From an uncultured delta proteobacterium (lineage in GTDB: Bacteria > Myxococcota > Myxococcia > Myxococcales > Myxococcaceae), in the NCBI GenBank assembly GCA_963796055.1, contig CAWCKH010000002.1, positions 160,001 to 224,000 of the forward strand: a stretch of DNA of 64,000 nucleotides, given 5' to 3'. Below, one piece after another: positions 1,056 through 10,475 of this stretch. Every line of letters starts with the position of its first letter. Position 1 is the stretch's first letter. The notes beneath the pieces are model-generated. The model ran no database searches. It worked only from the letters and a program-made list of their open reading frames with translations, and was not told where the DNA came from. Made by a program: the position numbers and the translations under genes.

Positions 1056-2222
1056 ATGACCCCGCCGGATCACCGCCAGGCAGTCGCCCGGACCCGCGAG
1101 ATCGCCGAGGCGACGATCTCCCCTGCAGCACACGAGCTCGACAGGGCAGGGAGCTTCCCCGCCGCCGCCGTTGCCGCGCTCGGAGAGGCCGGACTGCTGG
1201 CCCTCAACGTCCCCACCAGCTTCGGTGGGTCCGGCCTCGGCCCACGCGCCTTCGCGGAGGTCAACGCCATCCTCGCCGAGGCGGACCCGTCGGTGGCGAT
1301 GGTGTACATGATGCACGTCTGCGCCAGCGAGGTGGTCGTCGCCGGCGCCAGGACGACCCGGAGCCCGGTCTTTGAGACGGCGCTCGCGGACATGGCCCGA
1401 GGCAAGCACCTGACCACCCTGGCCTTCAGCGAGGCCGGGTCGCGGAGTCATTTCTGGGCGCCCCTCTCCAGGGCCTCCCGTGGCGCGGGCGGCGTTCGGC
1501 TGAACGCCAAGAAGTCCTGGGTCACCAGCGCCGGAGTCGCAGACAGCTACGTGGTCACGACCCTCTCGCCCGAGGCGAAGGGCCCCACGGACTCGACGCT
1601 GTACCTCGTGCCGAAGTCCGCGACCGGGATGCGCGTCACCGCGCCATGGGACGGCCTGGGGCTGCGCGCGACCGCATCGTCTCCCATGACCCTCGAGGCG
1701 GTGGAGGTGAGCGACGACCGCCGGCTCACCGAGGAGGGCGGTGGCTTCGCCGCCAAGCTGAACGTCGTCCTGCCCTGGTTCAATCTGGCCAGCGCCACCG
1801 TTTCGCTCGGAATCTGCAGGGCGGTGGTGGCAGCGACCGTCACTCATCTGAAGACGAGCAAGTTCGAGCATCTGGGCAACACCTCGCTCGGCGAGGCGCT
1901 TCCCACGCTGCGCCAGATGCTGGCCCAGATGCAGATCGACACCGACGGCCTCGCGCACCGGATCGACGAGTGCGTACGCGCGCTCGAGAGCCCTGGCCCG
2001 GAGACGATGCTTCGCGTCCTGGAGGTGAAGGCCGCTGCCGGGGAGACCGCGATCCGGGTGACCTCCAGCGCGATGCACGCCTGCGGTGGCGCTGCCTTCT
2101 CCAGGCACACCTCCATCGAGCGCTACTTTCGCGATGCCCACGCCGGCTCGGTCATGGCGCCAACCGTGGACGTCCTGCGCGAGTTCATCGGCAAGTCGCT
2201 CCTCGGCATCCCGCTGTTCTGA
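1056..2222 (+). CDS. Acyl-CoA dehydrogenase family protein (Rv1679/FadE16-like)
   Basis: Motifs TTLAFSEAGSRS, LNAKKSWVTS, WDGLGLRATAS, ACGGAAFS, IERYFRDA; GAGGAGG RBS before ATG 1056. Confidence 0.9.
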   Translation: MTPPDHRQAVARTREIAEATISPAAHELDRAGSFPAAAVAALGEAGLLALNVPTSFGGSGLGPRAFAEVNAILAEADPSVAMVYMMHVCASEVVVAGARTTRSPVFETALADMARGKHLTTLAFSEAGSRSHFWAPLSRASRGAGGVRLNAKKSWVTSAGVADSYVVTTLSPEAKGPTDSTLYLVPKSATGMRVTAPWDGLGLRATASSPMTLEAVEVSDDRRLTEEGGGFAAKLNVVLPWFNLASATVSLGICRAVVAATVTHLKTSKFEHLGNTSLGEALPTLRQMLAQMQIDTDGLAHRIDECVRALESPGPETMLRVLEVKAAAGETAIRVTSSAMHACGGAAFSRHTSIERYFRDAHAGSVMAPTVDVLREFIGKSLLGIPLF

Positions 2223-2233
2223 ACACGCTGCCC

Positions 2234-3055
2234 ATGCTCGAGACCATCACCGTCGGCGCCGTGGCGTACGATCCGAAGGTCGTCGGGATCTGGGAGGGCA
2301 TGCGGAAGTACTTCCGCGATGACGCCAGGATCCCGGTCGAGGTCGTGCTGTACCTAAGTTACGAGGCACAGGTCGCCGCGCTGCTTGCTGGGCGCATCGA
2401 CATCGCCTGGAACACCAACCTCGCCTATCTGCAGTGCGACCACCTCAGCCGGGGGGCGTGCAACCCACTGGCAATGCGGGACACCGACCTCGCGTGGTGG
2501 ACCGAAATCGTGGTTCGCACCGGGGCCGGCATCGGCCAGCTGTCGGACCTCCGCGGAAAGCGGGTTGCGCTCGGGAGCCGTGACAGCGGGCACGCAGCGA
2601 TACTTCCGGTCCACTTCCTCGCCCAGGCAGGGCTGGTCGAGGGCCGGGACTACCAGTCGCTCCGCTTCGACACCGACCTCGGGAAGCATGGAGACACCGG
2701 GACGAGCGAGGTCGACGTGCTCAGGGCCGTCCTCAGCGGCGAGGCCGATGCGGGCGCGGTGGGCAGCCCCTTCTGGGCGGGCGTCCACTCGGGTCAGCTG
2801 GTCCCGACCGGAGCCGTCAAGTCCATCTGGTCGTCTCCGCACTACCACCACTGCATGTTCACCGCTCGGGTCGGGCTTCCTACCGAGGACGCGACGCGCT
2901 TCACCGACGCACTCTTCGGGATGAACGGCGTGCCGCGGCTGCGGCCCATCCTCGATGCCGAGGGGCTCAAGGAGTGGGTGCCCCCGCGCACCGAGGGGTA
3001 CGGCTCGCTCCGCGAGGCGGCGCTCCGGCAAGGCTTCTTCGCACGGTCGGGCTGA
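2234..3055 (+). CDS. PhnD/phosphonate-type substrate-binding-fold protein without signal peptide (Rv1680-like)
   Basis: Motifs GAVAYDPKVV, YEAQVAALLAGRIDIAWN, LSDLRGKRVALGS, GEADAGAV; no N-terminal signal peptide; no permease or ATPase genes nearby. Confidence 0.8.
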   Translation: MLETITVGAVAYDPKVVGIWEGMRKYFRDDARIPVEVVLYLSYEAQVAALLAGRIDIAWNTNLAYLQCDHLSRGACNPLAMRDTDLAWWTEIVVRTGAGIGQLSDLRGKRVALGSRDSGHAAILPVHFLAQAGLVEGRDYQSLRFDTDLGKHGDTGTSEVDVLRAVLSGEADAGAVGSPFWAGVHSGQLVPTGAVKSIWSSPHYHHCMFTARVGLPTEDATRFTDALFGMNGVPRLRPILDAEGLKEWVPPRTEGYGSLREAALRQGFFARSG

Positions 3056-4087
3056 ATGGGATCCCAGCACCGGGCGGTCGAGGTTCGAGCGGGCGCGAAG
3101 GATTTTTCCACCGGCCTGCTGAATGACCTGCTCGCTGCGTTCCAGGGCCTCGCCGACGGCGACCTCCTCACGCTGCACGGCCCTGGTCGTCTCGGACCCG
3201 ACCTCGACCGCTGGGCTCGCTTCACCGGGAACGCCATCGTCGAGGTGAGCGCCGAAGGCGAGACGAGCCGATTCCTCCTCCGCAAGGGCGCGCCGCGCTC
3301 GTACGAGGAGGCGCCGGTCATCGGTTCGCGACTCTGGCTCTACTCCAACTTCGACTGCAACCTCGCCTGTGACTACTGCTGTGTGCGCTCCTCCCCGCGG
3401 GCAGAACCCAGGGCGCTCTCGCTCGAGGACGTCCAGCGCGCAGCCGCCGAGGCGCCCGGTGCCGGGGTCCGGGAGCTCTTCGTCACTGGCGGCGAGCCGT
3501 TTCTCCGGTCGGACATCGCCGAGGTGCTCCTGGCCTGTGCGCGGGCTCTCCCGACGACCGTGCTGACCAACGGGCTTCTCTTTGCCGGAAGGCGCCGGAT
3601 TGCCCTCCGCGAGATCCCGCGCGACCGCATCGTCTTGCAGATCAGCCTCGACAGCCCCACCCCCGCACTCCACGACCGGCATCGCGGAGAGGGAACCTGG
3701 GAGAAGACCCGGGCCGGGATCGCCATCGCCCGCGAGGAAGGATTCCGCGTCCGGCTGGCCGCGACCGTCGCTGACGCTCAGGCCGAGCAGGCGTTCCGGG
3801 CGTTCGTCGAGAGAGAGGGCATCGTCGAGGAAGACTGCGTTCTGCGTCGCGTCGCGCTGCGGGGCTTCGCCGAGGAGGGGGTGGCCCTGTCGCGGTCGGA
3901 CCTGGTGCCGGAGGTGACGCTCACCCGGGCAGGCATCTACTGGCACCCGGTCGGGGCGACGGATCAGGACTTCTTCGTCACCGCGCGGTCCTTCCCGCTC
4001 GTCGAGGCGATCGAGGCAGTGAGGCTCGCCTTCGCCGACGAGCGCCGCTTCGCCACCTCGCTGGCCAGCGTGTTCCGGTGCGCCTAG
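3056..4087 (+). CDS. Radical SAM protein with N-terminal TusA/SirA-like domain (Rv1681-like)
   Basis: CNLACDYC (CX3CX2C), TGGEP, LTNG, QISLD, HDRHRGEG; first ~75 aa resemble TusA (GDLLTL..DLDRWARFTGNAIV..RFLLRKG). Confidence 0.85.
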   Translation: MGSQHRAVEVRAGAKDFSTGLLNDLLAAFQGLADGDLLTLHGPGRLGPDLDRWARFTGNAIVEVSAEGETSRFLLRKGAPRSYEEAPVIGSRLWLYSNFDCNLACDYCCVRSSPRAEPRALSLEDVQRAAAEAPGAGVRELFVTGGEPFLRSDIAEVLLACARALPTTVLTNGLLFAGRRRIALREIPRDRIVLQISLDSPTPALHDRHRGEGTWEKTRAGIAIAREEGFRVRLAATVADAQAEQAFRAFVEREGIVEEDCVLRRVALRGFAEEGVALSRSDLVPEVTLTRAGIYWHPVGATDQDFFVTARSFPLVEAIEAVRLAFADERRFATSLASVFRCA

Positions 4088-4132
4088 CTCGTTTCGGTTG
4101 TAGAAGCCGAAAGAAGTGAAAGGAGGGCTCCT

Positions 4133-4615
4133 TTGGACGACCATGCAACGGAGACGCTCGGGGTTTCCCGCGGGCGTGCGCTGGCGGTACTGCGTGTGGC
4201 GCTAGGGGCGCTGTTCGTCTGGGTCTTCTTCGAGAACCTGGGAAAGGGCGCCTACACACCTGCGGGGTACAAGGGAGTCATCGACTACTACGTGAAGAAT
4301 GGCCACTCGCCCGCGATCTGGAAGGCGCTCATCTCGGTGGCCGCAGCCAACGCGCGCATCGTCGCGCCACTGCAGGCCATGACGGAGCTCGGGTTCGGGG
4401 TGCTCCTGGTGATGGGCACCGCCACCCGCGTGGTCGCCGCCGCCGCCGGAGCGTTCCTTTTCACCCTCTGGGTATCGGAGCTCGGCACCGCCTGGATCTG
4501 GGAGCTGGCCATTCCCGTCGTCCTCGCATTCTGTCTCGCCTGGGCGCGGGCCGGACGCACCTGGGGCGTGGACGCCGTGCTGACACGTCGGAATCCAGGG
4601 TGGCGTCTCGGATGA
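4133..4615 (+). CDS. DoxX/DoxD-family membrane protein
   Basis: LAVLRVALGALF, ELGFGVLLVMG, AGRTWGVDA; 4 TM helices; AGGAGG RBS before TTG. Confidence 0.75.
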   Translation: MDDHATETLGVSRGRALAVLRVALGALFVWVFFENLGKGAYTPAGYKGVIDYYVKNGHSPAIWKALISVAAANARIVAPLQAMTELGFGVLLVMGTATRVVAAAAGAFLFTLWVSELGTAWIWELAIPVVLAFCLAWARAGRTWGVDAVLTRRNPGWRLG

Positions 4616-5340
4616 GCTCGACGGGGATGCGCGTCAGCGTCGTCATCCCCACGTACAACGAGGCCGGCTCGATCGCGCGCGTCCTGGACGACATCCCCGC
4701 GTCGCTGGTCACCGAGGTGCTGCTGGTCGATGCAGGCTCGACCGACGGGACGCGCGAGATCGCCGCTGCACGTGGCGCCCGCGTGATCGTCGAGCCTCGC
4801 CGCGGGTACGGTCGCGCCTGCCTGACCGGCCTCGCCGCGGCCAACGACCCCGAGACCGTCGTGTTCCTCGACGGGGATTACAGTGACCGGCCTGCCGAGC
4901 TGGGCCGCCTGCTCGACCCGATCCGGGCAGGCAACGCAGACATCGTCCTCGGTTCGCGGCTGGCGGGCGGCCTCGTGGCCGGCGCGATGCCCTGGCACGC
5001 CGTGTTCGGAAACCGCCTCGCGGCGACCCTGATCCGATGGCTGTACGGCATCTCGCTGACCGATCTCGGGCCGTTCCGGGCCGCGCGCTGCGAGGTGCTG
5101 CGGGCGCTCGAGCTGCGCGAGATGACCTACGGCTGGGCGGTCGAGCTGGTGACGCGCGGTGCGATGCGGGGATATCGGGTGATGGAGGTCCCGGTCAGCT
5201 ACCATCCGCGCATCGGTGTCTCGAAGATCAGCGGAACGTTGCGAGGCTCGACCGGCGCCGCCTGGTGCATCATGACGGGCATCGTGAAGAACCGGCTGCG
5301 TGCCGCGACGAGTCCGGCCGAACCGGGACAGGCGACATGA
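4612..5340 (+). CDS. Glycosyltransferase family 2 (DPM-synthase-like)
   Basis: VSVVIPTYNE, VDAGSTDGT, GYGRA, FLDGD (DXD), ADIVLGSR, EVPVSY; ATGA overlap with the upstream gene. Confidence 0.9.
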   Translation: MSSTGMRVSVVIPTYNEAGSIARVLDDIPASLVTEVLLVDAGSTDGTREIAAARGARVIVEPRRGYGRACLTGLAAANDPETVVFLDGDYSDRPAELGRLLDPIRAGNADIVLGSRLAGGLVAGAMPWHAVFGNRLAATLIRWLYGISLTDLGPFRAARCEVLRALELREMTYGWAVELVTRGAMRGYRVMEVPVSYHPRIGVSKISGTLRGSTGAAWCIMTGIVKNRLRAATSPAEPGQAT

Positions 5341-6059
5341 GCCGTCGCGGGCCCGATCACCGAACGGAAGGCGCCCGCGGCGCGGTGGTGGTCATGGCGA
5401 AAGCTCCCCGGGAAGGTTTCGTGAAGACGAGACTGACCGGCGCGTACCCGGCGCGCGACGTCGTCCAGCTCGCCGACTGCATGCTGCGCGATACCCTGGC
5501 GCTGGTCCAGCAGCTTCCTCGCGTCCACGTGGCCGTGATGTGCCCCTCCGAAGACGTGGGCGCCGTCGAGGCCCGATTGCCAGCGGGCATCCACGTCGTC
5601 GGCCAGCGCGGCAACGGCCTCGCGGCTGGGCTCGTTTCCGCCTTCGAACGCTTCATCCCGAACTTCCGCCGCGTCGTCGCCGTCGACAGCGACAGTCCGC
5701 AGCTGCCACTGGCGTGCCTCGAGTCGGCATTCGACCTTCTCGAGAAGAACGAGGTGGTGGTGGGACCGACCGAGGACGGCGGCTACTATCTCGTCGGCGC
5801 GTCGGCGATGCACCCACGCCTCTTCGAGCTGGCGCCGCTCGGCACCGGCAACGCTCGCGATGCCCTCGTCGGGAACGCGCGTGCGCTTGGATTGTCGGTG
5901 GCCTTCACCGAGACCGGGTACGACGTCGACGACCCGGCGGACCTGCGCCGGCTCGCCGCCGAGCTGCGCATCGAACCCGCGCGAGCGCCCCGCACCGCCG
6001 CGCTGCTCGCGTCGTGGCGACCAGGCTCGGACGCTCACGACGACGAGCGCACCGGATGA
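5337..6059 (+). CDS. DUF2064 / TIGR04282-type (rSAM/selenodomain-associated, CofC-like) transferase
   Basis: MAKAP..GFVKTRL, DSDSPQL, VVGPTEDGGYYLVG, DVDDPADL; ATGA overlap. Confidence 0.85.
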   Translation: MSRRGPDHRTEGARGAVVVMAKAPREGFVKTRLTGAYPARDVVQLADCMLRDTLALVQQLPRVHVAVMCPSEDVGAVEARLPAGIHVVGQRGNGLAAGLVSAFERFIPNFRRVVAVDSDSPQLPLACLESAFDLLEKNEVVVGPTEDGGYYLVGASAMHPRLFELAPLGTGNARDALVGNARALGLSVAFTETGYDVDDPADLRRLAAELRIEPARAPRTAALLASWRPGSDAHDDERTG

Positions 6060-6072
6060 GGTGACGACGCCG

Positions 6073-7359
6073 ATGCGCGTCAGCGTTGGAAGATGGGCCG
6101 GAGGCGGCCTCCTCGGCCTTGCGCTCCTGACCTTCGGTCTGGTTCGACCCGACGACGGCTCGGCCCCATTCTTCGTCCTGCTCGCACTGGCGGCGGTCGG
6201 CTACCTCGCAACGCTGTATCAGGTCGCGAACGGGCTGTGGCCTTCCGGGCGCACGTTGATCGTCTGCGCCGCGCTGGCTCTGGCCTGGCGCGTCCCCATG
6301 CTGCTCGCGCCTCCTGAACCCGCCGCTGACCTTCGCCGCTACATCTGGGACGCCCACCTCCTCCGCGCAGGCCTCAGCCCCTATGCGGTGGTTCCAGCCG
6401 ACCCGACGTTCGCGCACCTGCGGACCGGCGAGAACTGGCCCTTGAACAATTCCGACGTGCCGAGTCCCTATCCTCCGGGCGCGCAGCTCTTCTTCCTCGC
6501 CGCGACGATGCTCGGCGAGTCGGCGCGAGCCATCAAGCTGGCCGCCCTCCTGTGCGACGCACTCCTGGCGCTCGTCGTCTGGCGATCGCTCGTGGTCGCC
6601 GGCGCGAATCCGGGCTGGGTGCTCGCGTATCTCTGGAGCCCTCTCGTTTCGCTCGAGGTCGCCCGTCACGGGCACCTCGACGTGGTCGGCGCGCTCCTGG
6701 TCGCCTTCGCTGCGTTCGCGCTCGCGCGCGGCCGGGCGCTGGTCGGCAGCGTCGCCTTCGCGCTGTCAGTCGCGGTGAAGCCTCTGCCGTTCGTTCTCTT
6801 GCCGCTACTCTGGCGCCGCGTCTCGGTCCGGCACGTCGTCGCCGGAGTCACCGTGCTGCTGGCCCTCTACCTGCCCTTCTGGGACCGCCGCCACCTGCCC
6901 ATCGGGTCCGTCCCGGAGGTGGTCGACCGCTTTCGCTTCAACGGGCCCATCTTCTCGGTGGTCGCAGCGCTCGCAGGCCCTGCGGCGGCGACGGGGTTCG
7001 CGGTCGCCGCCGGGCTGGCGGTCGCGGTCTGGGCACGCCGCCGGCTCTCGCTGGCGTCGCCTCAGGCGTGGGCATGGCCGATGGCGGCGACGCTCCTGGG
7101 TGCGCCGCTGGTGTACCCCTGGTACCTCGTCTGGCTCGCGCCGTTTCTCGTCACGCCGCAGACCATGCCGCTGACGATCTGGACGATCTCGATCCTCGGC
7201 ACCTACGTCGTCTGGAAGCTCGTCGGCGTCCCCTGGGCGGTGCCGGCCTGGGCACTCGTGGTCGAGTACGGAGCGCTGCTCGGAGCTGCTCTGTGGCTGT
7301 GGCGAAGAACAGGCCGGCTCACTTCGCCTCCATCCAGGCATCTGACCCCGCCAGCTTGA
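6073..7359 (+). CDS. Polytopic GT-C fold membrane glycosyltransferase (GT87/DUF2029-like)
   Basis: DLRRYIWD..AGLSPY..P, SPYPPGAQLFF, YLWSPLVSLE..GHLD, FRFNG, YPWY; about 10 TM helices; alternative GTG start at 6061. Confidence 0.8.
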   Translation: MRVSVGRWAGGGLLGLALLTFGLVRPDDGSAPFFVLLALAAVGYLATLYQVANGLWPSGRTLIVCAALALAWRVPMLLAPPEPAADLRRYIWDAHLLRAGLSPYAVVPADPTFAHLRTGENWPLNNSDVPSPYPPGAQLFFLAATMLGESARAIKLAALLCDALLALVVWRSLVVAGANPGWVLAYLWSPLVSLEVARHGHLDVVGALLVAFAAFALARGRALVGSVAFALSVAVKPLPFVLLPLLWRRVSVRHVVAGVTVLLALYLPFWDRRHLPIGSVPEVVDRFRFNGPIFSVVAALAGPAAATGFAVAAGLAVAVWARRRLSLASPQAWAWPMAATLLGAPLVYPWYLVWLAPFLVTPQTMPLTIWTISILGTYVVWKLVGVPWAVPAWALVVEYGALLGAALWLWRRTGRLTSPPSRHLTPPA

Positions 7360-8047
7360 CCGCCACGTTCGAGAGGGATTCCGTGAACGGGTGGCCGTCG
7401 GCCTTTCCGCGGTGCTGGGTCGAGACAAGCAAGGGTCCGGCCTTCTTGTAGCCCTCCCAGGTCGCCAGGACCACGCTCGGCTTCGCCGTTCCCCCGTGGT
7501 GAAATTCGAGCTCGTGAATCCGGTTGTCGGGAGCGGCGAAGATCGCCCAAGTGTCACCCGGCAAGTAGCCGCCGCTGGACGGATACTTCACCACGACCTT
7601 CCTGGCCTTGCCCTTCCCAAGCGGCAGCTTCTGCATGCCGGCATCCTCGATGGTCGCGCCGGTATCCCAGATGAGATGGAACGGAAACAGCAGCCAGTAC
7701 TGATCGTTGAAGAACCCGGGATCGACCATCTCCTTCACGAACGCGCTCTGGCTCGCAAGCTGCGAGCGCGAATACGTGATCTTGACGGGCTTGCCGGCAT
7801 TGTCTGGCCCGTCGTAGGTGATCGTGTCGGTCTTCGGCTCCCAGATCCACGAGCGGTGGAGCTTCAGCTTGCCCGCATCGAGGGTGAACGTGTAGCGGAT
7901 CGCCTCGACTTGATCCCACGCATCGATCCCGTAGGTCTTGGCAATCTGGTCGGCGATCGGCGGGCGCTGCTGCGCCGACGCAGGTGGTACGAGACAAAGC
8001 ACTCCGATCAACAGCGCACCGATCACCGAAACGCTGCTCGCTTTCAT
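7319..8047 (-). CDS. Secreted hypothetical protein
   Basis: Signal peptide MKASS...ASA|QQ; globular sequence with TYGIDAWDQVEAIRYTF and FFNDQYWLLFPFHL. Confidence 0.7.
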   Translation of the reverse strand: MKASSVSVIGALLIGVLCLVPPASAQQRPPIADQIAKTYGIDAWDQVEAIRYTFTLDAGKLKLHRSWIWEPKTDTITYDGPDNAGKPVKITYSRSQLASQSAFVKEMVDPGFFNDQYWLLFPFHLIWDTGATIEDAGMQKLPLGKGKARKVVVKYPSSGGYLPGDTWAIFAAPDNRIHELEFHHGGTAKPSVVLATWEGYKKAGPLLVSTQHRGKADGHPFTESLSNVAVKLAGSDAWMEAK

Positions 8048-8514
8048 CCTCGGTACCCTCCTGGACGACTCGGGAAAAGGTCCTTCGCCATTCACATCAC
8101 TGCCTGCACAACTCTCGAGCACCATCTCTCCCCAGCAGGCGTCATCCTGTACACACTCGGCTGCGTCATGGCAGACGATCCAGGCACGCGACTCGAGCGA
8201 TTCCCTCTAGCAGTAGGATTTCCTGCCTGGCACGCGCGTGCTCTACGTTCCGCGCGTCGGAAACGAGGCGGCCAGATGAAAGCGGCGCGAAGAATCGCGG
8301 CAGCGGTGCTGGTGGTCGGAAGCAGCGTGGCGGCAGCGGCAACGCGGCCGAGCTCGGCACGTACGTCGTCGAAAGAGGGAATTCACTCGTCGCGATCGTC
8401 AAGTGAGCGCCCAGTGAGGTGACCCTGGTCGTCGCCGCGGCCGTCTCTTCAGTGCTCGTCGCGTTGAGTTGGCCCTTGCCACGAGGCGGCCGACCCGGCA
8501 ACCCTGCATCCCGG

Positions 8515-9900
8515 ATGTCCTATCTCCGAGACGAGCCCGACTTCGACTTTCGTGTCCTCCTGCGGGGGCCTCGCCACAGCGAGCTGCTCGTGACGGGGCG
8601 GGAGGGCCGCTGGAAGCTGCCTCGCTTCGTCTCCGGCGAGCAGCACACGTCGGAGGTGGTGTTCGTCAACCGGACTGTCCGTCAGAGCCTGGGTCTCGAG
8701 GCGACCGTGCTCCGGTGCCTCTGGACCGACTTCGACGAGCCGCAAAACGTGGTGCGCATGCTCTATGTGCTGGAAGCGCACGGCGTGGGCTGGACACCGA
8801 GTGCCGTCGGCGGGGCCTGGTTGCCCGCCGATGTCTTGGTGCGCGACGGAGCCGAGGATCGCGACGTCGCCGCCGTCGTGGAAGCCTGGGCACGCGAATC
8901 GACGGACCGCCCGGTCATCCCGGACGGCCAGGAGTGGTTCGCTCCAGGCTGGTGGGACCGAATGCTAGGCTGGGCCCGCGAGCGGCTGCACCCCGTCCAC
9001 GTCGGCGCGGCCGAGCAGCTGCGGTCGTCGGAGTCTTCCTGCGTGGTGCGCCTGGAGACCGAGGAGGGAGCCGCCTTCGTGAAGGCAGTGGCGGCGAGCC
9101 TCGCGCGCGAGGTGGCGGTGACGGCCCGGCTGTCCCGCGTCCCCGCCAGCGCGGTCCCCCCGGTCCTCGCGGTGGATGTGCCGCAGCGCTGGATGCTCCT
9201 GCGCGGCGCGGCGGGGCGTCCCCTCGGCGACACCGGGGACCTCGCTGTCTGGGAGCGAGCGGCCGCTGCGTACGGACGCTTCCAGCTCGCTGCGGCCTCG
9301 AGCGTCGACGCGCTCGCCGGGGTGGGCTGCCCCACGTTGACCGCGGGGCAGCTGCAGGAGGACGTCCTCGAGGTCCTTGCCAGCGATGAAGCGATGCAGG
9401 CCGGGAGACCGGGCGGACTGGAGCCCGAGCAGGTGTCGCGTCTCAGGACGTTGAAGCCGCAGCTCCTGGCTGCAACCACCTCGCTCCACTCGAGCGCCCT
9501 GCCGGTCAGCGTCGATCACGAGGATCTCTGGCCCGAGAACGTGTTCTCCGCAGAGGACGGGTGCCAGGTCGTGGACTGGGAGGACGCCCGGATTGCCCAT
9601 CCCTTCCTGAGCCTCTTTCCGCTGCTCGCCGGTGCCCGCATGCAGAACACCTTTGCGGACCATGCCGCCGCGAGCGCCCGCATCCGGGACGCTTATCTGG
9701 AGGGCTTCGCGCGCTTCGCTCCCGCCGAAGCGCTGCGCCAGTTGTTCGGCGCGGCCCATGACCTGGCCGCGGTACGAATGGCCGCGACCTATCTGCGCGC
9801 GTCCCCGGCTATCCAGCGCGCCCATCCCTGGATGCGCGAGATGCCTGCGTTTTGCCTGCGGGCGCTGCTGGAGCGCCGGGACGGTGTGGAGGGCCCGTGA
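8515..9900 (+). CDS. Aminoglycoside-phosphotransferase/choline-kinase-fold protein with degenerate NUDIX-like N-terminus
   Basis: FVKA, HEDLWPEN (HxDxxxxN), VVDWED, AHPF; N-terminal LLV...WKLP. Confidence 0.7.
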   Translation: MSYLRDEPDFDFRVLLRGPRHSELLVTGREGRWKLPRFVSGEQHTSEVVFVNRTVRQSLGLEATVLRCLWTDFDEPQNVVRMLYVLEAHGVGWTPSAVGGAWLPADVLVRDGAEDRDVAAVVEAWARESTDRPVIPDGQEWFAPGWWDRMLGWARERLHPVHVGAAEQLRSSESSCVVRLETEEGAAFVKAVAASLAREVAVTARLSRVPASAVPPVLAVDVPQRWMLLRGAAGRPLGDTGDLAVWERAAAAYGRFQLAAASSVDALAGVGCPTLTAGQLQEDVLEVLASDEAMQAGRPGGLEPEQVSRLRTLKPQLLAATTSLHSSALPVSVDHEDLWPENVFSAEDGCQVVDWEDARIAHPFLSLFPLLAGARMQNTFADHAAASARIRDAYLEGFARFAPAEALRQLFGAAHDLAAVRMAATYLRASPAIQRAHPWMREMPAFCLRALLERRDGVEGP

Positions 9901-10475
9901 TCCAGGCGGGACCGGTGGAGCGCGAGGAGGAGCTGGAGCAGATCCTTTTCCTGCAGCGCGCGAATCTCCCTCGGCAGCTGAGCCCGGAGGAGATCGCGGC
10001 AGAGGGATTCGTCACCGTCGAGCACACGCTCGATCTCCTGAAGCGCATGCACGCAGTCGTTCCGAGCATCGTCGCTCGGGAGGGCGCCAGCCTCGCAGGG
10101 TACGCCCTGGTGATGCCCGTCGAGTGCCGCTCGCTCATCCCCATCCTCGAGCCGATGTTCCAGCGCCTCGATGTGCTGGGGATGACCGGGCAGCGATTCT
10201 ACGTGATGGGGCAGATCTGCGTGGACAAGCGCTGGCGCGGGAAGGGCGTCTTCGATCTTCTCTACCAGGCGCACCGCCGACATCTGCGGGCGAGATTCGA
10301 CTACTCGGTGACCGAGGTCGCGACGCGCAACACCCGCTCCATGCGCGCCCACGAGCGAGTCGGGTTCACCGTGATCGACCGATACCGCGACGCGACCGAC
10401 GAGTGGGCCTTGCTGCGTTGGGACTGGTCCGAGCGCTCGGTATTGGGTGCTCCTGACTGGCCGGAGTTTCGATGA
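9897..10475 (+). CDS. GNAT family N-acetyltransferase
   Basis: GQICVDKRWRGKGV (motif A) and NTRSMRAHERVGF; GTGA overlap with the upstream gene. Confidence 0.85.
   Translation: MIQAGPVEREEELEQILFLQRANLPRQLSPEEIAAEGFVTVEHTLDLLKRMHAVVPSIVAREGASLAGYALVMPVECRSLIPILEPMFQRLDVLGMTGQRFYVMGQICVDKRWRGKGVFDLLYQAHRRHLRARFDYSVTEVATRNTRSMRAHERVGFTVIDRYRDATDEWALLRWDWSERSVLGAPDWPEFR

Follow-up and report, generated by a model that had tools for sequence, protein, structure and literature searches.

An Rv1678-Rv1681-type cassette linked to three transferase genes in a myxobacterium: a possible route to methylthioxylose-like envelope caps

This study describes seven + strand genes at 1056..7359 of a 64,000-nucleotide stretch (the window) of contig CAWCKH010000002.1 (assembly GCA_963796055.1, positions 160,001 to 224,000), from an uncultured member of the Myxococcaceae. 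The genes join a counterpart of the Mycobacterium tuberculosis Rv1678-Rv1681 cassette, which includes a radical SAM enzyme, to three transferases, and the arrangement is a gene cluster. The reading that we prefer, tentatively and with somewhat less than even confidence, is that the cluster directs envelope capping similar to that with methylthioxylose (MTX), the radical SAM enzyme making an adenosine precursor with a heteroatom, most likely sulfur, at its 5' position. Taken alone, the carrier half of this scheme, from activation of the sugar through its loading on polyprenyl phosphate to its transfer, is probable. The mycobacterial MTX pathway, absent from the original prediction for this locus, is a closer model than the arsenosugar clusters that the prediction had invoked. 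New here are a likely unlisted selenoprotein family, proposed from sequence patterns, and the probable grouping of the GT2 enzyme with the one at the presumed MtxS position of a mycobacterial MTX-type cluster.

Composition of the cluster

Seven co-directional open reading frames (ORFs) had been predicted, and their coordinates and spacing were confirmed. The intergenic gaps are 11, 0, 45, -4, -4 and 1 bp, the last becoming 13 bp if the ATG at 6073 is taken as the start of the GT-C gene. GC content is flat across the locus (~0.70), and each of the seven genes is single copy in the host genome (5.5 Mb, 98.5% complete).

The first three genes proved to be counterparts of Rv1679 (FadE16)-Rv1680-Rv1681, as predicted, and stand in the same order. 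The first (1056..2222) encodes an Rv1679/FadE16-type flavoprotein of the acyl-CoA dehydrogenase (ACAD) fold with Pfam ACAD domains. Its best NCBIfam model is NF049984 (Rv1679), at 407 bits under the cut-off of 600 and ahead of the next family by 285 bits, and it is 49% identical to a copy that passes the NCBI cut-off. Alignment to solved ACADs revealed that the catalytic Glu motif IYEGT (MCAD position) is replaced by VMAPT, invariant in 19 aligned members. Ordinary acyl-CoA dehydrogenation is therefore unlikely, and the plain dehydrogenase identity assumed earlier is not supported. The next-best named families were SfnB and 3-sulfinopropanoyl-CoA desulfinase.

The second gene (2234..3055) encodes an Rv1680-type cytoplasmic protein of the PhnD/PtxB fold, with matches to Phosphonate-bd and to NF049985 (Rv1680; 310 bits, under the cut-off of 400) and 48% identity to a copy passing that cut-off. 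Its sequence begins at the first strand of the domain, in agreement with the predicted lack of a signal peptide. The oxyanion-pocket residues Y43, S118 and H152 are kept (PtxB Y55, S130 and H160), and an invariant Cys207 (codon 2852-2854) aligns with PtxB Y208 and PhnD Y206, the tyrosine that caps the ligand (PMC5700983). Arsenite binding of the AioX type, which uses Cys106 (PMC5908839), was rejected for this protein, as Thr61 occupies the Cys106 position in an alignment through PhnD Gly65. Complex prediction for the first two proteins gave no answer (score 0.00) and was used neither way.

The third gene (3056..4087) encodes the radical SAM enzyme, which scores 414 bits against NF049973 (Rv1681; cut-off 380) and thus belongs to this family, with CxxxCxxC at residues 101-108 and an F-R-C-A-stop tail. 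The fourth (4133..4615, uncertain TTG start) encodes a DoxX/DoxD-like membrane protein (DoxX profile 27.9, cut-off 23.6). Only profiles join it to the N-domain of the Rv1678-type membrane protein (HHalign 97.1%, E 6e-11): direct pairwise BLAST between the two gave no match, and there was no match to NF049986, which models the C-terminal part of the Rv1678-type protein. On this profile comparison it is the Rv1678 counterpart, so that the window holds the whole Rv1678-Rv1681-type tetrad. All four components of the M. tuberculosis cassette (NF049986, NF049984, NF049985, NF049973) and their shared motifs are thus represented. In contrast to that cassette, the window membrane gene is shorter and placed after the radical SAM gene, the ACAD-fold and PhnD/PtxB-fold proteins fall below the NCBI cut-offs, and transferases and a LolA-fold gene are attached. 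NCBIfam gives these families names but no function; our literature search found no function for the Rv1678-Rv1681 cassette and no paper naming two of Rv1679, Rv1680 and Rv1681.

Three transferase genes follow. The single-domain GT2 (4612..5340) is of the polyprenyl-phosphate glycosyltransferase type by family profiles, its nearest models being AglJ (133) and dolichyl-phosphate hexose transferase (106), both under cut-off. The DUF2064 protein (5337..6059) is a CofC-like putative nucleotidyltransferase passing TIGR04282 (139 bits, cut-off 134). The last (6061..7359) is a membrane glycosyltransferase of the GT-C fold, MptA/B- or GT87-like, with a conserved Asp90 in the first loop. The GT87 profile reached only 21.3 against a cut-off of 25, but all 30 Atlas feature matches fell in MptA/B- or GT87-type clusters at 0.99. 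A sequence search for a solved relative of the GT-C protein found none. The predicted logic of activation, loading and transfer fits these transferase families.

An eighth gene, absent from the original prediction and on the - strand (7319..8047), is convergent with the GT-C gene, overlaps its stop and was found in 35/80 related loci; it belongs to the cluster. It encodes a secreted protein whose predicted structure (pLDDT 88.6) has top Foldseek matches exclusively in the LolA superfamily (LolA, LolB, LprG), at E 3e-6 to 1e-5 and a TM of about 0.45, which places it in the LolA/LolB fold. From this model, the protein is likely a carrier of lipid or glycolipid.

Linkage of the tetrad and the transferases

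A scan of GTDB genomes yielded 513 loci with a relative, and the best-scoring 80, kin included, were analysed. DUF2064 was present in 56, GT2 in 47 and a GT-C of the window type in 43 of them. When only the 43 loci flanked by 7 kb on each side are counted, these numbers become 38, 33 and 31, and 30 loci contain all three. The link was seen in seven phyla (Acidobacteriota, Pseudomonadota, Verrucomicrobiota, Gemmatimonadota, Myxococcota, Dormibacterota and Actinomycetota), which bears out the predicted association of the triad with these transferases across phyla. In an even draw of 201 Acidobacteriota, taken as an unbiased sample, three genomes carried the full-length enzyme, and in 3/3 the sole DUF2064 gene lay within 3.5 kb.

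The partners and their order vary. The linked transferases of L009 come from distant subfamilies (34-45% identity), and the GT-C slot is held by unrelated families, GT87-like in the window and DUF2079 in L014 and L082. The exact window order was found in 2/80 loci only (L015 and L017, both close kin), and the close relative G205 has an inverted transferase block, so a conserved seven-gene operon is not supported. Among 50 loci with the ACAD-fold, PhnD/PtxB-fold and DUF2064 genes, all three lie on the radical SAM strand in 6. The arrangement is a gene cluster rather than a conserved operon, because the other 44 place a block on the opposite strand. The radical SAM gene was the one most often co-oriented with DUF2064 (39/50 loci).

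In 16/80 loci (L016, L035, L038, L042, L046, L051-L053, L079 and others), a second, SPASM-bearing radical SAM gene lies between the GT-C and GT2 genes. This enzyme, absent from the window, probably performs a sugar-tailoring step.

The C-terminal Cys or predicted Sec of the radical SAM family

The predicted structure of the radical SAM protein (pLDDT 89.8) comprises a core without a SPASM domain and a flexible, low-confidence tail ending in FRCA. Fold searches with this model retrieved generic matches of the SPASM/twitch and viperin types, but no solved structure closely related to it. The TusA-like label of the original prediction is correct for the fold of residues 4-78 (Z 10.8, rmsd 2.5, 74 aligned residues, E. 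coli TusA 3lvj_C) and fails for the function it suggests. The TusA persulfide cysteine is replaced by Phe in the window and in 64/87 long forms, and no Cys was seen in the inspected N-termini of the remaining 23/87. A sulfur relay through the fused domain was rejected, since the carrier cysteine is missing.

The tail was surveyed in 180 loci with few duplicates (80 from genomes, 80 from metagenomes, 17 actinobacterial and 3 further). In 84/87 long forms, a C-terminal Cys is followed by no more than two residues; in the window this is the penultimate Cys342 (codon 4079..4081, +). The other 93 forms comprise 75 with a TGA at the same position followed by a second stop within three codons, 12 with Cys and 6 open or otherwise ended. 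A single small residue and then a stop follow the TGA in 67/70 distinct ends. We also scored hairpins resembling a selenocysteine insertion sequence (SECIS) with a rule of our own (stem of at least 5 pairs, G-first loop, 15-23 nt past the TGA), modelled on the bacterial SECIS consensus. Such hairpins were found in 64/70 TGA forms, 12/92 Cys forms and 416/3500 shuffles; a looser rule gave 56/70, 29/92 and 478/1400, respectively. Cys and TGA forms interleave within close clades of a quick tree (L160/L162/L164; L102/L104/L106). The placement of ArsS in this tree was disregarded because its branch is very long.

Because the TGA aligns with the Cys of homologues and a SECIS-like hairpin follows it, the shorter relatives likely form a selenoprotein family, with selenocysteine (Sec) predicted at the TGA. 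This pattern supports the heteroatom involvement foreseen in the original prediction; nothing was found for phosphorus, one of the elements it had listed. Presence of selA was dropped as a test of the Sec reading, as it does not discriminate: the gene was detected in 12/14 genomes with the TGA form and also in 103/151 background genomes (four of them unpublished), and a match was missing in 3/15 genomes with a non-TGA form, including the mycobacterial genome G536 discussed below. The host has both SelA and SelD, and its SelD gene (G000:C4:58620-59549) carries an in-frame TGA, yet the host cluster enzyme uses Cys.

In Table 1 of PMC13188914, radical SAM selenoproteins are represented by TIGR04167 and TrsS alone, and the Rv1681 family is absent; "unlisted" refers to this table. 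The family would likely be a third of this kind, to be added with two candidate partners to the 119 of the 2026 review.

The first candidate partner is a small protein with an Lrp/AsnC ligand domain, encoded directly after the Sec-form radical SAM gene in L104-L136 (e.g. L108:2477, L117:8879). It has a conserved in-frame TGA (SLGN-U-xTTGI) with a hairpin behind it and 16 motif matches, is absent from the review table, and showed no Cys form among the L104-L136 loci. The second is a UroD/MtaA-CmuA-like methyltransferase, likewise absent from the review table, with an in-frame TGA in 8 loci and Cys in 1 (L140, L151, L159, L160, L163, L165, L171 and L173). In the actinobacterial form of L166, L167, L168 and L180-L183, a metallophosphoesterase is fused to the radical SAM domain, often accompanied by MTAP, DUF2064, a distinct GT2 and a flavin monooxygenase.

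Relationship to methylthioxylose capping

Angala et al. in 2017 are said to have described an M. tuberculosis MTX cluster that includes the MTAP Rv0535, the epimerase Rv0536 and the DUF2064 protein Rv0540. The window shares with MTX capping of lipoarabinomannan (LAM) the logic of a GT2, a DUF2064 protein and a membrane transferase. In the mycobacterial pathway, MtxS (Rv0539) is the enzyme that produces the MTX lipid donor, and the transfer of MTX to LAM is the task of MtxT (Rv0541c) (PMC8780516, PMC12088412). Genome G536, mycobacterial by gene content, encodes fabH-menA-MTAP-epimerase-membrane-GT2-DUF2064 and a convergent membrane gene. A cassette scoring above the Rv1679, Rv1680 and Rv1681 cut-offs lies at a distance of 10-18 kb from these MTX-type genes. 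The MtxS and MtxT positions in this genome are those that we presume from synteny.

Compared with the enzyme at the MtxS position of G536, the window GT2 has 41% identical residues; MtxS itself has no curated family model. In a quick tree of 44 rows, the G536 GT2 nests among the GT2s linked to radical SAM genes (SH-aLRT 98), and the window GT2 falls in the sister group to the G536 group (92), apart from the host paralogues (83). MTAP and epimerase genes adjoin many window relatives: a phosphorylase (MTAP/PNP) lies beside DUF2064 and GT2 in 18/180 loci and an NDP-sugar epimerase in 12, with both in 6. The host has an MTAP and a cluster-type epimerase, which score 288 and 428 bits against cluster-derived profiles; both are encoded on contig C3, unlinked to the cluster. 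The window differs from the MTX system in that its GT-C belongs to another family, no LAM is expected in a myxobacterium, the MTAP and epimerase are unlinked, and a dedicated radical SAM module is attached.

Proposed pathway

Genes, families, linkage, Cys/TGA exchange and hairpins are observed, and the reactions below are all proposed from them. First, the PhnD/PtxB-fold protein, with Cys at the pocket cap, would bind or present a small sulfur species, the Glu-less ACAD-fold flavoprotein would set its oxidation state, and the DoxX protein may recycle a thiol or selenol through the quinone pool. By the precedents of ArsS and ArsL, the radical SAM enzyme would then carry out radical substitution at a heteroatom bound by the tail Cys or Sec, giving 5'-X-5'-deoxyadenosine. 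The co-located MTAP/PNP genes suggest phosphorolysis to 5-X-ribose-1-phosphate as the third step, for which the host could use its unlinked MTAP. DUF2064, judged by its family, would convert the product to an NDP-sugar, which the unlinked epimerase may invert. In the fifth step, homology and family point to GT2 making a polyprenyl-phospho-sugar and to GT-C transferring the sugar outside the membrane to a surface glycan. Finally, the fold of the LolA-like protein suggests that it carries acceptor or product.

For the heteroatom we infer the ranking S > As > Se. Counted for sulfur are the thiol partners in loci of the TGA (Sec) form (Cys-bearing TusA 14/75, DsrE 14/75, AhpD/CMD 11/75), the thiol-redox neighbours of the L206 cassette described below, and the likeness of the ACAD-fold protein to SfnB and the desulfinase.

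Several observations weigh against this pathway. The dependence of the modules is one-sided: DUF2064 occurs in 84/201 Acidobacteriota (the unpublished G728 among the carriers) and the radical SAM enzyme in only 3; therefore, the transferases do not need the enzyme, and the tetrad follows the transferases. In Actinobacteria, the tetrad mostly lacks a transferase within 10 kb (DUF2064 in 2/10 loci). DUF2064 was found somewhere in 15/18 genomes tested, mostly those without a nearby copy, and 3/18 (incomplete genomes) had no DUF2064 match. The 80 loci were, moreover, chosen by score and include kin. The ACAD-fold gene is present in 14/75 and the PhnD/PtxB-fold gene in 11/75 Sec-form loci, many on short contigs, and both are therefore regarded as accessory. 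There is no phosphorylase or epimerase within the window cluster, and 5'-methylthioadenosine (MTA) also arises from ordinary metabolism. The GT2 tree has SH-aLRT supports only, from quick searches. The window GT-C and the protein at the MtxT position of G536 showed no similarity (HHalign 0.85%), and the acceptor therefore differs. In M. tuberculosis, the MTX genes reportedly sufficed without Rv1678-81.

A bolder extension, which we consider doubtful, is that the Rv1681 family forges 5'-thio-, seleno- or arseno-adenosine on a Sec/Cys arm, feeding widespread heteroatom-pentose envelope caps. If it were true, mycobacterial MTX and cyanobacterial arsenosugars would be two ends of one class of cap, and soil versions would bear a selenium- or arsenic-containing surface sugar. 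The pathway gives the Rv1678-Rv1681 cassette a concrete chemical proposal, marks the tail Cys/Sec as a target for mutation and ties the cassette to a known capping logic. It also suggests thio-pentose-type envelope caps beyond mycobacteria, in soil Acidobacteriota, Alphaproteobacteria, Myxococcota and others, and cultured, non-pathogenic carriers include Bradyrhizobium valentinum LmjM3, B. centrolobii BR 10245 and Nonomuraea mangrovi. Haft and Tolstoy 2025 or Angala et al. 2017, with supplements, may already state part of this.

Alternative explanations

The alternative that survives best keeps the same route with arsenic as the heteroatom: the enzyme would replace ArsS, and the product would be an arsenosugar-capped glycan or lipid. 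We consider this rather unlikely. Arsenosugar clusters (ArsS TIGR04167, ArsM, TIGR04282, TIGR04283) likewise have a radical SAM (seleno)protein with a C-terminal Cys/Sec beside TIGR04282, and window relatives have phosphorylase, phosphoesterase and ArsM-like partners. The original comparison with them stands for the DUF2064 protein, whereas the GT2 is not TIGR04283 (48.6 bits, cut-off 182), the enzyme is not ArsS, the ACAD-fold, PhnD/PtxB-fold and DoxX genes are extra, and the 98.5% complete host genome lacks ArsM (best 53 bits vs 263) and ArsS (27.8 vs 300). The two enzymes are distributed as if they filled one slot: ArsS occurs in 5/64 genomes with the Rv1681-type family (2/24 Acidobacteriota) vs 44/84 DUF2064-bearing Acidobacteriota, all 44 ArsS-bearing Acidobacteriota falling among those 84; this depletion may, however, reflect lineage.

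ArsS adenosylates dimethylarsenite (PMC13598754), and ArsL binds arsenite by a C-terminal Cys motif (10.1101/2024.02.01.577332). The RCCLKC tail of ArsL, outside the cluster motif, offers a precedent for the conserved tail Cys, but the window family has one Cys/Sec instead of three Cys, ArsL transfers an aminocarboxypropyl group, and the ArsL family was not among the 25 profile matches listed for the window enzyme. A Cys capping the oxyanion pocket would suit As(III), against which stands the lack of an AioX Cys106 equivalent. In 6/75 Sec-form loci, the flanks include ArsM-like genes whose known Sec site reads UGA. Against this, a Pfam scan of 73 unlabelled neighbours (72 of 108 neighbour clusters and one protein from L206) gave one ArsB-like/CitMHS match and no ArsR, ArsC or Acr3 at E 1e-12. 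The nearest outside relatives found also favour arsenic, being radical SAM-ArsM fusions, one of them beside DUF2064.

These fusions (L196:2051-5503 and L197:5469-7958) are of the radical SAM/SPASM-ArsM type, with NF049973 as the best radical SAM family. DUF2064 and a MerA-like gene are neighbours of the L196 fusion, whose genome has no ArsS.

A role of the tetrad in thiol/redox chemistry or detoxification (e.g. interconverting MTX and its sulfoxide), accompanying the capping genes without building the sugar, is also unlikely. The DoxX gene is the steadiest partner (36/43 long-form and 28/36 larger Sec-form loci), and the unlinked MTAP and epimerase of the host would already complete an MTX route. 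In addition, L206, a plasmid-borne Rv1678-81 cassette in Mycolicibacterium vanbaalenii, has no transferase and is surrounded by genes for Prx, AhpD, Grx, CcdA, Dsb and deiodinase-like proteins. However, a radical SAM enzyme would be an odd tool for redox repair, and it is the radical SAM gene, rather than those of the ACAD-fold and PhnD/PtxB-fold proteins, that is most often co-oriented with DUF2064.

Selenium as the heteroatom of the same route, giving a methylseleno- or other seleno-pentose cap, appears improbable. In L013, a gene upstream of the Sec form encodes a putative selenate transporter (TIGR04553, 349 bits, cut-off 250), several partner genes have an in-frame TGA, and SelD and SelA are present in the host. 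On the other hand, Sec in an enzyme usually replaces a catalytic Cys and does not point to a selenium product, none of the clusters was seen to contain selD, and the selA match is missing from the non-TGA-form genomes noted above, G536 included.

Two unrelated modules brought together by chance or shared mobility, as the commonness of DUF2064 and the frequent opposite strands of the blocks might suggest, are largely refuted and hardly credible, since the modules are found together in seven phyla, their gene order varies widely, distant subfamilies of transferases take part, and both the Cys and the Sec clades show the link.

Surrounding genes and further observations

A scan for promoters and terminators found no promoter-like site and terminator-like sites at chance level, and was uninformative on co-transcription. 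A DUF5765 membrane protein gene (53-979, +) lies 76 bp upstream of the cluster on the same strand; it was rejected as a cluster member, being adjacent in 0/80 related loci. In L206:14577-16945, a TrsS-like radical SAM gene (336 bits, cut-off 490) and a DVU_1556-like methyltransferase gene adjoin the cassette. Downstream of the window cluster, and not seen as recurring neighbours of related clusters, are ORFs 8419-9900 and 9852-10475 (+), which by eye are aminoglycoside-phosphotransferase-like and GNAT-like. In L108, L117, L123, L124, L138 and L142, a DinB-family gene takes the place of the PhnD/PtxB-fold gene beside the ACAD-fold gene, and a NUDIX hydrolase gene was observed in 12/75 Sec-form loci.

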